Origin: Planctomycetota bacterium
GTDB taxonomy: Bacteria > Planctomycetota > Planctomycetia > Pirellulales > Lacipirellulaceae
Direction of reading: 5' to 3'
DNA length: 64,000 nt
Assembly: GCA_039190745.1 (NCBI GenBank)
Contig: JBCCXZ010000002.1
Location: forward strand, 64,001 to 128,000
Each line of letters opens with the position of its first letter. The first letter of the stretch is position 1. Position numbers and translations under genes: made by a program. This document shows positions 59,939 to 64,000 of the stretch, in pieces. The notes under the pieces are model-generated. The model was not told the DNA's origin, did not search any database, and saw only the letters and a list, made by a program, of their open reading frames with translations.

Positions 59939-60796
59939 CTAGTACTCGACGCCGACGTACGTGCCGAACCCGTGCAGGGCGAGGTCGCCCAGCAGGTTCG
60001 AGTCGCTGTCCCAACGCTGGGCCTCCCAGAAGATCGAGGCAACCAGGTCGAACGCGTCGAACTCGAACTCAAAATTGGCGCCGGCCTGGAATTCCCAGAC
60101 CTGCACGAACTCGTCGGTGATCTCCAGCGGGCCGCCGCCGATTAGGTAGATGTTGTCCTGTTCGATATCGCCGTAGAGCAGCGCGGTGCGGACCCGGCCG
60201 AAGAAGGACATCTCCTCGAAGAACACGGGGCGAGAACCCATCGCCGAGAACGTCGGCCCGGCGCCCTGGAACTCGGTCCCAGCGAGCCCGAACCATACGG
60301 CCTCGTCGAAGTCCTCCCACTCGAACTCGTCGCTGGCTTGCTCGCGGATCTCGTACTGGGCGTACCGCACGCCGGCGGTGCCGACCCAGTCCCAGACGCT
60401 GAACTTGCCGCGCTGGATGAACTCCGCGTCGAAAGCGTCGAGCTCGATGCCGAGGTCGCCGGCAATCGGCACCGTGCCGCTCCCGTCCCGGCCGACGCCG
60501 ACGTAGCCGGTGGTATTGTCGAACGTGAACCAACGGACCTGGACGCCGCCGCCCTGCTCGCCCTCGTAACCGAGCGAGACGCGCTGGGCGAAGTCGAGTT
60601 CCGATTCGACGTTCCCGTCGCCGAACTGCGGCACGGGCGAACCGTGGTAGAAGATATTGTCGAATCCGGCGCCGCTCAGTTTGGGAGCCAAGTACAGCAG
60701 GTCGACGCCCGCGAACCAGCCCTCATCGGCCCGGACGCCCGCCGCCTGCACGGCGACCGTGACGGCCGCGATGGCCGCAAGAAAGAACTGTTTCAT
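59939..60796 (-). CDS. Outer-membrane beta-barrel protein
   Basis: Signal peptide, amphipathic aromatic-rich strands, terminal GFGTYVGVEY. Confidence 0.78.
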   Translation of the reverse strand: MKQFFLAAIAAVTVAVQAAGVRADEGWFAGVDLLYLAPKLSGAGFDNIFYHGSPVPQFGDGNVESELDFAQRVSLGYEGEQGGGVQVRWFTFDNTTGYVGVGRDGSGTVPIAGDLGIELDAFDAEFIQRGKFSVWDWVGTAGVRYAQYEIREQASDEFEWEDFDEAVWFGLAGTEFQGAGPTFSAMGSRPVFFEEMSFFGRVRTALLYGDIEQDNIYLIGGGPLEITDEFVQVWEFQAGANFEFEFDAFDLVASIFWEAQRWDSDSNLLGDLALHGFGTYVGVEY

Positions 60797-61035: not shown

Positions 61036-61428
61036 CTAAGCGGGTTGGACGTGGTTACGGAGCCAATCGGTTAACTCGTCTTCCGAGAGCTGGCCTTCGG
61101 CAAGATGGAGTATAACCCGGTAGAGTTCGTCGTCGGTCGCCCCCAACTTGTAGCCGTTCAACTCAATGAATGCTTCGCAGACCACCGCCGCAGTCCGCTT
61201 GTTGCCGTCCACAAATGGGTGATTCCGCGCGATTCCGAATGCGTAGGCCGCCGCAAGTGCTGGTATGTCCGCCTTGTCGGCGGCGTACCCGTACAGGTGC
61301 CTCGGTCTTGCTAAGGCCGAGGAGAGCATACCCCGATCTCGGACCCCCTCCATGCCTCCGTGCTCGGCAAGCTGCCGGTGGTGGATCGCCTCGACCGCCT
61401 CTGCCAAAATCCAATCTGGATCGGTCAC
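61036..61428 (-). CDS. doc: Death-on-curing (Doc/Fic) family toxin
   Basis: HGG..GVRD..L.SALARP and NHPFVDGNKRTA Fic/Doc motif. Confidence 0.93.
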   Translation of the reverse strand: MTDPDWILAEAVEAIHHRQLAEHGGMEGVRDRGMLSSALARPRHLYGYAADKADIPALAAAYAFGIARNHPFVDGNKRTAAVVCEAFIELNGYKLGATDDELYRVILHLAEGQLSEDELTDWLRNHVQPA

Positions 61429-61431
61429 CGG

Positions 61432-61656
61432 CTACTCAGCCAGCTTTCGGAGCACGTTGCGACGCTCGCGCATGACCTGCTCAGCTGTCTCCATCTGACG
61501 CTGCAACTCTGCGTCGTAGGGGGTGAGCGTCACTCCGTCCGGGGCCTCGGTAATGTGCAGCTGATCTCCCTGGCCGACACGCAATCGCTCAAGCACCTCC
61601 TTGGGCAGGACAATGCCAACGGAGTTGCCGATCTTCGTGATTTTGACGGTCGTCAT
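61432..61656 (-). CDS. AbrB/MazE/SpoVT family antitoxin
   Basis: KITKIGNSVGIVLPKE; 3-nt gap before doc; GGAGG RBS. Confidence 0.93.
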   Translation of the reverse strand: MTTVKITKIGNSVGIVLPKEVLERLRVGQGDQLHITEAPDGVTLTPYDAELQRQMETAEQVMRERRNVLRKLAE

Positions 61657-61704: not shown

Positions 61705-62745
<1,041 letters not shown>

Positions 62746-62752
62746 ATGAGCT

Positions 62753-63101
62753 AGCCACAGATGAACACAGATAAACGCTGATGATCTAGTTGCTGTCGAA
62801 AGCTGATCTTAAGGCCTCGGCAACAACCTGTGATTGACTCGATGCATTCAAACCCATGCGTTCAACAACAATGTTGTCCAGTTCTTTGGCCAACGCGTTA
62901 CTCTCCATCCCGTCTCGTAGCCAACAATAGATAGGCCAGACATAGGCGTCGTACTCGTCGTCAACGACACCGCTTACGCCAATCGGATCCCACCTTTCGT
63001 TAAGGATCTGCTTGATCTCGGATAGCCGAGTGTCGCGTCGATGCGCCTCTTTCTCTGAGTCTCCGTGCGTCATCTGTGTGCATCTGCGTCCATCTGTGGC
63101 T
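62753..63101. mobile_element. Putative non-autonomous cassette: 32-bp periodic inverted repeats enclosing one ORF
   Basis: Arms 62753-62784 and 63070-63101 match 26/32 as inverted repeats; each is three 10-nt units with a CAGAT core; interior is low-GC. Confidence 0.6.
62786..63073 (-). CDS. 95-aa protein with WDPIG..DEYD.Y motif (DUF1871-like)
   Basis: MTHGDSEKEAHRRDTRLSEIKQILNERWDPIGVSGVVDDEYDAYVWPIY...; the ATG lies within the right repeat arm. Confidence 0.72.
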   Translation of the reverse strand: MTHGDSEKEAHRRDTRLSEIKQILNERWDPIGVSGVVDDEYDAYVWPIYCWLRDGMESNALAKELDNIVVERMGLNASSQSQVVAEALRSAFDSN

Positions 63102-63110
63102 GTTCCCAAA

Positions 63111-64000
63111 TCAAACGCCAACGCCGAACAGGTCGCTGTGCTCCAGCCCAAACGTCTCCGCCACCGGCCGGTTCGTCACCCGGCCCTGGTGCATGTTGAC
63201 CGACCGGGCCACCGGCGGACGTGCCTCGGCGGCCTCCTCGATGCCCCGCTCGGCGATCTCGATGACCCACGGAAGCGTCACGTTGCACAGGGCGAACGTG
63301 CTCGTTCGGCCGACGGCGCCCGGCATGTTGGTGACGCAGTAGTGCAGCACGTCGTCGATGATGTAAGTCGGCTCGGCGTGCGAGGTGGGCCGGCTCGTCT
63401 CGATGCAGCCGCCCTGATCGATGGCCACGTCGATGATCACGCTGCCCGGCTGCATCCGTTTGAGGTCTTCGCGCTCCACCAGCCGCGGGGCCTTGGCGCC
63501 GGGGATCAGCACGGCGCCGATCACCAGGTCGGCCCGCTCGAGCTGCTTGCGGATCGTGTGCCGGTCGCTGAACAGCACGTCGACGTTGGGCGGCATCACG
63601 TCGTCGAGGTAGCGGAGCCGGTCCATGTTGATGTCCAGCAGGGCAACATTGGCGTTGAACCCCGCGGCGATCTTCGCCGCATTCGCGCCAACTACGCCGC
63701 CGCCGAGCACGGTGATGTACGCCGGCGCCACGCCCGGCACGCCGCCCAGCAAAATGCCCCGGCCCATCTGCGGACGCTCCAAGTACTTGGCGCCCTCCTG
63801 GATGCTCATCCGCCCCGCCACCTCGCTCATCGGCGTGAGCAGCGGCAACCGGCCCTGGTCGTCGGCGAGCGTCTCGTACGCCGCGGCCGTGCAGCCGCTG
63901 GCCAGCACCGCCTCGGTCAGCTCACGGTCGGCGGCAAAGTGGAAGTAGGTGAACACGATTTGCCCCGAGCGGATCTTCGGCCACTCCTCGCGCATCGGCT
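63111..64000 (-). CDS. ald: Alanine dehydrogenase, 5'-truncated by the window edge
   Basis: FTYFHFAA, LPLLTPMSEVAGR, LGGVPGV, GGGVVG, GAVLIPGAKAP, DVAIDQGGC, HYCVTNMPGAV. Confidence 0.95.
   Translation of the reverse strand, partial: PMREEWPKIRSGQIVFTYFHFAADRELTEAVLASGCTAAAYETLADDQGRLPLLTPMSEVAGRMSIQEGAKYLERPQMGRGILLGGVPGVAPAYITVLGGGVVGANAAKIAAGFNANVALLDINMDRLRYLDDVMPPNVDVLFSDRHTIRKQLERADLVIGAVLIPGAKAPRLVEREDLKRMQPGSVIIDVAIDQGGCIETSRPTSHAEPTYIIDDVLHYCVTNMPGAVGRTSTFALCNVTLPWVIEIAERGIEEAAEARPPVARSVNMHQGRVTNRPVAETFGLEHSDLFGVGV

Follow-up and report, generated by a model that had tools for sequence, protein, structure and literature searches.

How does a single small gene come to lie, with hardly a nucleotide to spare, between two inverted repeats at the junction of two host genes, and did the repeats have a part in bringing it there? 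The locus belongs to a genome of 3.89 Mb that is 95% complete (hereafter G000) and lies in the window, the whole 64,000-nt stretch of DNA that was analyzed. The original prediction took it for a unit of a gene-capture or cassette-exchange system in which a trans-acting enzyme recognizes the repeats. Our findings suggest a repeat element, so far little known, whose contents are exchanged now and then.

The cassette and its enclosed gene

The cassette lies between the 3' part of an upstream host gene (ald, alanine dehydrogenase; 63111..64000, minus strand) and a downstream host gene (61705..62745, minus strand) of the IF-2B family, which we take to be mtnA, as named in the original prediction. 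Pfam matches to AlaDh_PNT and to the IF-2B family uphold these flank identities. The ald-side arm (63070..63101, minus strand) is 5' on the transcript and consists of three 10-nt units, and the mtnA-side arm (62753..62784, plus strand) is 3' on the transcript and inverted. The spacing of the arms from the host genes, 9 nt from the ald stop (63111) and 7 nt from the mtnA start (62745), is as first described, and a direct count confirms that the arms match at 26 of 32 positions; as an inverted repeat the pair ranks first in the region, with 32-nt arms that are 81% complementary and lie 285 nt from each other. Each arm had been described as three CAGAT-core units, of which the number and the 10-nt spacing stand, but the innermost unit of the left arm reads CTGAT.

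The enclosed gene (hereafter the cargo; 62786..63073, minus strand) encodes 95 amino acids, takes its ATG from the innermost ald-side unit and ends 1 nt before the other arm, as claimed. Since the cassette has no other ATG, GTG or TTG from the arm to the conserved region of the cargo, the arm ATG is its only plausible start. When the interior was shuffled, the frame opened by the arm ATG ended −3 to +5 nt from the other arm in 79 of 20000 cases. A 7-codon mini-ORF within the ald-side arm (63070..63093, minus strand) ends in a TGA that overlaps the cargo ATG, an arrangement that might provide translational coupling and could equally be an automatic outcome of the 10-nt period. The low GC content of the interior, first counted by hand, is borne out (0.519, or 0.5125 for 62821–63060, against 0.70–0.76 in mtnA windows and 0.649 genome-wide), and the cassette showed no sigma-70-like promoter, in agreement with the proposal that the cargo is promoterless. 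No Rfam family matched within 62500–63400, and no target duplication was seen by eye around the arms at the inspected junctions, a comparison made without a closely related empty site.

An assembly artefact was considered and ruled out, since the arms recur at the same site in a sister species (G098) and contigs of sequencing run X1, which may be the source sample itself, span the cassette without differences. Contigs of four sequencing runs yielded no usable sign of excision: the sides of their arm-to-arm joints measure only 27–30 nt and fit other arm pairs too. In the surrounding region, a MazE-like antitoxin and Fic/Doc pair follows straight after mtnA (61036–61656, minus strand; GC about 0.58) where the sequence aligns continuously with G098, and a 285-aa outer-membrane beta-barrel-like gene (59939–60796, minus strand; PF05150 match) adjoins an RND efflux pair and is ordinary.

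Relatives of the cargo number 454 representatives in a full HMMER search (E ≤ 0.001, 50% clustering) and form a widespread family of small helical proteins with the conserved pattern WDPIG..DEYD.Y..MGL; a word-index protein search with the cargo gave no relatives. Pfam and NCBIfam assigned the cargo to no family, the gathering score of DUF1871 (PF08958) not being reached. A weak DUF1871 match in 4 of 70 cargo relatives, a comparison with PDB 1u84 at E = 0.038 and a value of 0.89 for a DUF1871 cluster in the ESM Atlas (the last a lead only) suggest that the cargo is distantly related to DUF1871, though not a member of it. A literature search on DUF1871 gave nothing relevant among the papers listed. 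The idea that this gene is a habitual passenger of such arms was rejected, as flanking inverted repeats were present at 0 of 23 other family loci (a phylum sample of distant relatives, excluding 2 loci at contig edges). The cargo is a passenger and not the mobilizer.

Dispersed arms and GxxExxY genes

A weight matrix derived from 16 three-unit seeds detects 29 arm copies in G000, mostly scoring 25–60, against a top score of 8.4 on either strand of 2 Mb of order-3 Markov sequence, which served as the null since the reversed unit resembles the unit and makes the reversed genome unsuitable. Eleven of the 29 are solo, and nine inward pairs lie within 1 kb, with interiors of 15, 46, 47, 74, 90, 110, 205, 285 and 637 nt; outward pairs of this arm type number 0 in G000. 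Among the matches listed, the arms of G000 sit between genes, mostly a few bases past a stop codon. By consensus an arm consists of three direct 10-nt units, and no arm among the inverted repeats listed is self-complementary. Purines make up about 70% of the ten bases that flank an arm on each side. The 10-nt phasing is particular to this arm sub-family, and others use 9.

The repeats are thus not unique to the locus, and the same holds well outside G000. The arm pattern occurs in 85 of 120 genomes of this bacterial family (0–178 copies; reversed control 0), and an exact-pattern scan of species genomes gave at least 122 stretches, with record titles that, among the matches listed, name Planctomycetota, Acidobacteriota, Verrucomicrobiota, Chloroflexota, Bacteroidota, Proteobacteria and others. 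The first 80 of these loci resolve into 59 pairs, of which 54 are gene-free (10–148 nt), one holds a GxxExxY gene and four are longer with doubtful ORFs; no clear gene was found inside the arms of 26 pairs from the other 42 listed loci, which had shorter flanks. The interiors are mutually unrelated, with a single match between two of the 23 compared.

Several other arrangements were observed. Other repeats are nested within arm pairs, such that different three-unit families share one intergenic gap (L235 = G098:C4:187144-187362, L154, L436, L464). A second dispersed repeat, about 150–250 nt long and with a promoter-like stretch nearby, directly adjoins several solo arms (G000:C4:40320, C17:52422, C24:12001 and C24:18317; L041, L045, L046, L052 and L056 in G098), and at L423 (G116:C1:184738-185718) five co-directional arms form tandem units of about 204 nt.

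The original prediction had pointed to similar repeats beside GxxExxY-family genes, and this link turned out to be real and clade-specific. GxxExxY genes are carried by 112 of the 120 family genomes, often in several copies, and flanking inverted repeats matching at 19/24 or better occur at 33 of 37 GxxExxY loci vs. 0 of 35 control windows. G000 has six such genes, one with an internal stop, and every one adjoins its own 9- or 10-nt-period repeat, with 9–36 dispersed copies and 2–8 inward pairs (reversed control 0–7). The gene with the internal TAA (G000:C17:35166-35513) adjoins a repeat that still has 29 copies (control 7). One clade of the GxxExxY tree (96/87), which spans two phyla, holds 8 of the 9 proteins with this cassette's arm type, the single exception being a Bacteroidota gene with these arms outside the clade. 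Arm-type labels, assigned by eye, change 11 times on the tree against 24.1 when shuffled, a co-phylogeny of arm and gene that physical linkage alone would lead one to expect.

We built a profile from eight clade proteins and ranked the family genomes by it. All 24 top clade loci outside the training alignment have an arm, with both arms at 20 and an in-frame ATG in the upstream arm at 21. Across all 30 clade loci, 25 have an arm ATG, for 20 of which there is no other start before the conserved region, and three start at the innermost arm unit as does the cargo of this cassette; the clade gene of G000 itself lies at G000:C3:36930-37271. Five or more arms are present in 26 of 29 genomes with a clade gene vs. 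29 of 91 without (medians 23 vs. 1), a comparison for which Fisher values overstate the association, since related genomes do not count as independent and many are incomplete. The trend is also seen within genera g4, g5 and g12. Twenty genomes have at least 15 arms and no gene above the clade threshold, with genus g21 wholly so (up to 82 arms), and at 59 arm loci (22 pairs) on viral contigs no GxxExxY gene was found within 700 nt.

The GxxExxY genes pass both family cut-offs (TIGR04256 and PF13366), with 146 and 139 bits against a cut-off of 35 for TIGR04256, and all eight clade proteins compared have D62, E72 and K74. For a structural model with a pLDDT of 94, the top fold matches are PD-(D/E)xK structures with Z up to 8.0, in near ties among Cas4 (7.9), restriction enzymes (7.9) and Hjc (6.8); Foldseek gave no match at E ≤ 0.001. 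As no fold sub-type is singled out, a resolvase-like mechanism is just one option. The family HMM, the GxxExxY motif, the D..ExK active site and the modeled PD-(D/E)xK fold together identify the partner in this clade as a GxxExxY protein and a putative nuclease.

Junctions and cargo in related genomes

To follow the ald-mtnA junction across relatives, 90 loci were examined from 108 genomes with mtnA. In 51 of them ald is adjacent, and we set aside 29 without ald in the locus, 8 without an mtnA match and 2 that are partial. The junction is tight in 14 of the 51 (−4 to 48 nt), holds an arms-only pair of this type in four (G098, G063, G071 and G079) and holds a GxxExxY gene with related 9-nt arms in three (G081, G092 and G073). 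The empty and arms-only alleles that the original prediction had anticipated are therefore present, and nuclease-bearing ones with them. Twelve junctions hold unrelated genes without these arms, a few have other three-unit families or REP-like palindromes, and this cargo is found in G000 only (1 of 51). The ancestral junction is tight.

The sister species G098 gives the closest view of the interior, its ald being 97.6% and its mtnA 95% identical to those of G000. Between its arms lies an unrelated 86 nt (score 16, matched by 92 of 200 shuffles). The ald-side arms of the two genomes differ at 2 of 34 positions, where the median for non-orthologous arms is 7 and 7.9% of such pairs differ at 3 or fewer; the mtnA-side arms differ at 4 of 34, which is not diagnostic of inheritance. 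The unrelated interior together with the near-identical ald-side arm means that the interior was replaced while at least one arm was retained. Of six arm pairs at shared sites, three have conserved interiors, two have unrelated ones and one is doubtful, and at one of the conserved sites the arms differ at 8–9 of 34 positions, the reverse of interior exchange. Three sites have different repeat families in the same gap in G000 vs. G098, and one of these gaps is a GxxExxY cassette in G000. At C44, where G098 has a solo arm, the same arm in G000 is separated from one of another family by about 680 nt that include a 191-aa ORF. Arms and interiors both turn over. In two gaps of G098 (L229 and L232, G098:C3) we also observed an AGACAGG-type tandem-unit inverted repeat where G000 has a 10-nt arm pair.

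Cargo in other genomes was sought among inward pairs with long interiors, hand-picked from the arm lists of about a dozen arm-rich genomes and hence not a random sample. In the 20 picked pairs that lack GxxExxY, five small cargos have a Pfam name (Macro, barstar, DUF5684, HicB and DUF5615); the same 20 include one host-like dehydrogenase, one weak zinc finger and two mutually similar membrane ORFs, and about five have no convincing gene. The G015 cargo (98 aa, from a real family) has its ATG at the same position as in the G000 cassette and its stop 3 nt from the arm, and the G012 cargo (Macro) shares that ATG position. The stop of the G101 cargo (117 aa) overlaps the arm, and that of the G013 cargo (barstar) lies 5 nt from it. 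Framing as tight as in the G000 cassette, with an arm ATG and a stop −1 to 5 nt off, is found at L416, L410, L394, L417 and the viral L325. Two of 22 viral arm pairs have a possible cargo (L343, 189 aa; L325, 81 aa), both read from an arm ATG.

At the junction upstream of an aldehyde dehydrogenase gene, 10 of 41 loci are tight and 12 are GxxExxY cassettes; among 30 loci drawn irrespective of gene, GxxExxY cassettes number 4. Other genomes have at this junction an arms-only pair, or arms that enclose HicB, a 98-aa gene or a 169-aa gene, and in four genomes HicA/HicB-like genes are present there without arms. Cargo also varies at two more junctions, one after what is presumably secA and one between a presumed desaturase-like gene and presumed fabZ. 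The ald-mtnA and aldehyde dehydrogenase junctions are general insertion sites. In 30 metagenome loci with interiors sized like that of the G000 cassette, no clear non-nuclease gene was found; these held nested repeats and two near-identical shortened GxxExxY genes.

Gene capture is real but rare, and concentrated in a few genera. Because it is a minority outcome, the arms and their pairs are chiefly a family of repeat doublets rather than a dedicated cassette system. The original prediction holds in that unrelated cargo lies within the arms and varies, even at one and the same junction, but as an account of the repeats in general it is overstated, since 54 of 59 pairs are gene-free, none of the 30 metagenome pairs holds a clear captured gene and the junctions also take genes without arms.

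Mechanism, alternatives and known systems

We favor, with modest confidence, an account in which nuclease-driven rewriting of the interior made the cassette a non-autonomous member of a dispersed arm element linked to GxxExxY. The ends of the element would be inverted arms of three short units, and its full form would carry the small GxxExxY gene (TIGR04256/PF13366, PD-(D/E)xK); in the G000 cassette the slot of the nuclease or of a short spacer would be filled by the unrelated DUF1871-like gene. A cognate nuclease, supplied in trans, would bind the phased arm units and may cut at or inside the arm pair in its duplex or hairpin form. Repair would then mostly leave a short new spacer and rarely patch in foreign DNA, and inserts in frame with the arm ATG would be expressed from the host operon and so kept. 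This account builds on the genome-wide family of inward pairs, the link to one clade, the starts supplied by arms and the series of alleles. What the G000 case adds is evidence for interior exchange and for unrelated genes within the arms.

It is possible, though we think it rather unlikely, that the doublets spread (probably via GxxExxY) while the nuclease has no role in the gain of cargo. Small genes would enter permissive operon junctions by illegitimate recombination, the arm pair being a neutral site and a safe landing pad, and deletion and selection would trim the insert to the arm ATG. The rarity of cargo overall fits this explanation, as do the nesting of other repeats within arm pairs, the acceptance of genes without arms at both junctions (12 of 51 at ald-mtnA, HicA/HicB-like genes in four genomes) and the 23 other cargo-family loci free of flanking inverted repeats. 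It fits less well that in the G000 cassette and at the five tightly framed loci above the cargo takes up the whole interior, leaving no trace of donor DNA or of an old spacer. Such framing is unlikely by chance alone (the 79 of 20000 shuffles), though selection could yield it, and the mutual unrelatedness of short interiors (one match in 23) is what repeated rewriting would produce.

An effect at the level of mRNA appears improbable. Here the arms would pair as RNA, the cargo would be looped out of the operon transcript, and RNase III or a GxxExxY protein acting on RNA would cut the stem, as with the ORF-bearing intervening sequences (IVSs) of 23S rRNA. The cassette transcript does fold with a long closing stem (z −3.57), splicing endonucleases are in the fold list of the nuclease (Z 5.6–5.8), and the accessible text of PMC4990558 describes a 428-nt ORF-bearing IVS of Coxiella that is excised by RNase III. 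However, the sense strand has no preference for G-U over A-C mismatches (37 vs. 64 in 61 nuclease cassettes, 21 vs. 23 in 14 cargo cassettes), 11 of the 29 arms are solo, and a stem would not need sequence-specific three-unit arms.

Least probable of all, and in our view most doubtful, is that the arms owe their movement to a different enzyme, either a RAYT/TIRYT HUH transposase or a recombinase of the host, with GxxExxY as no more than their most successful cargo: the layout resembles that of REPtrons and TIRtrons as outlined in the accessible text of PMC3733652, and the 20 arm-rich genomes have no gene above the clade threshold, but arm type follows nuclease clade, genome-wide arm number follows gene presence and the catalytic residues are invariant. 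A search for Y1/RAYT genes also gave no PF01797 match in G000, at its 95% completeness, with the control positive in 6 of 14.

Returning to the nuclease account, we compared the element with known mobile systems. Integron cassettes are promoterless single genes with almost no spare DNA, and their cargo includes toxin-antitoxin and immunity-like genes; each has one attC, and they are arranged in arrays. The units described here have two inverted arms and are dispersed rather than arrayed, and no tyrosine integrase adjoins the element within the window. As in a MITE or other IS derivative, the same arms occur on gene-free pairs and on clade-A GxxExxY genes, so that a putative autonomous partner shares them, but the interiors are not mutually homologous, and no target duplication was apparent by eye at the junctions inspected.

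REPIN/RAYT systems come closest. In the accessible text of PMC3116915 and bioRxiv 10.1101/2021.07.10.451892, they too are extragenic inverted doublets with conserved arms, a variable spacer and tens of copies; each repeat type is paired with a cognate enzyme gene that is flanked by that repeat and tends to remain in one neighborhood, as with the 12 clade-A genes at the aldehyde dehydrogenase junction. Unlike these, the gene flanked by the repeat here encodes a predicted PD-(D/E)xK nuclease and not a Y1 HUH transposase, each arm has three tandem 9–10 nt units where a REP is a short palindrome (about 14 bp), the arm supplies a start codon, and the interiors, anywhere between 0 and about 1 kb long, may hold whole genes. 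TIRtrons, as far as the accessible text of PMC3733652 goes, likewise have a gene between inverted repeats, which can extend into the coding sequence and which form dispersed dimers; the TIRYT is a tyrosine transposase, however, whereas the genes enclosed here are GxxExxY or unrelated small genes and none is Y1, the quoted TIR motif is unrelated, and passenger genes are not described there. The IVSs of 23S rRNA treated in the accessible text of PMC4990558 match the cassette in size (about 350–450 nt), in having one small ORF closed by a stem and in lying within a host transcript, but our cassette lies at an mRNA operon junction between two protein genes rather than in an rRNA helix, and its arm family has many gene-free and solo copies and no sense-strand G-U bias. 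The system would work like REPIN-RAYT, yet it lacks the palindromic arm of that group and no Y1/HUH gene was found in G000; our best reading of the cassette is a member of a REPIN-like system that carries a passenger and would be driven by a non-HUH nuclease.

The system is apparently unpublished. GxxExxY (PF13366) is listed as of unknown function with multiple transfers in the consulted part of PMC3424549, and is mentioned in one paper as a neighbor of an RT. The accessible text of PMC3733652, PMC3116915, PMC5581495, PMC4990558 and bioRxiv 10.1101/2021.07.10.451892 describes neither the repeat nor a GxxExxY-repeat link, and a literature search that covered mostly open-access main texts found no description of the repeat system; repeats tabulated with PMC3733652 may be relevant to this point. 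The clade-specific repeat is a candidate for a defined substrate of GxxExxY, a large family with no assigned function.

As a tentative generalization, about which we are considerably less confident than about the cassette itself, miniature elements of this kind may be widespread and driven by a stand-alone PD-(D/E)xK nuclease, with a three-unit, helically phased arm for each clade to recognize. Cuts within the arm pair would rewrite the interior and at low frequency capture whole foreign genes, the 10-nt-period arm would offer a start codon in any of three frames, and expression would come from core operons, amounting to integrase-free gene sampling at fixed chromosomal slots. If the nuclease model is true, a second and unrelated kind of enzyme would be able to give rise to REPIN-like repeat populations. 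Core operons would then also contain ready-made slots in which small genes (toxin-antitoxin parts, barstar, Macro domains) are sampled with no integrase.

For annotation, N-termini of small proteins such as MNADERR or MNTDEHR may be translated arm. At a further locus (L040 / G000:C13:69794-71373) a 500-aa gene lies between two co-directional arms, and in G098 the ATG of the upstream arm is in frame with it, which suggests that solo arms may add N-termini to host genes.
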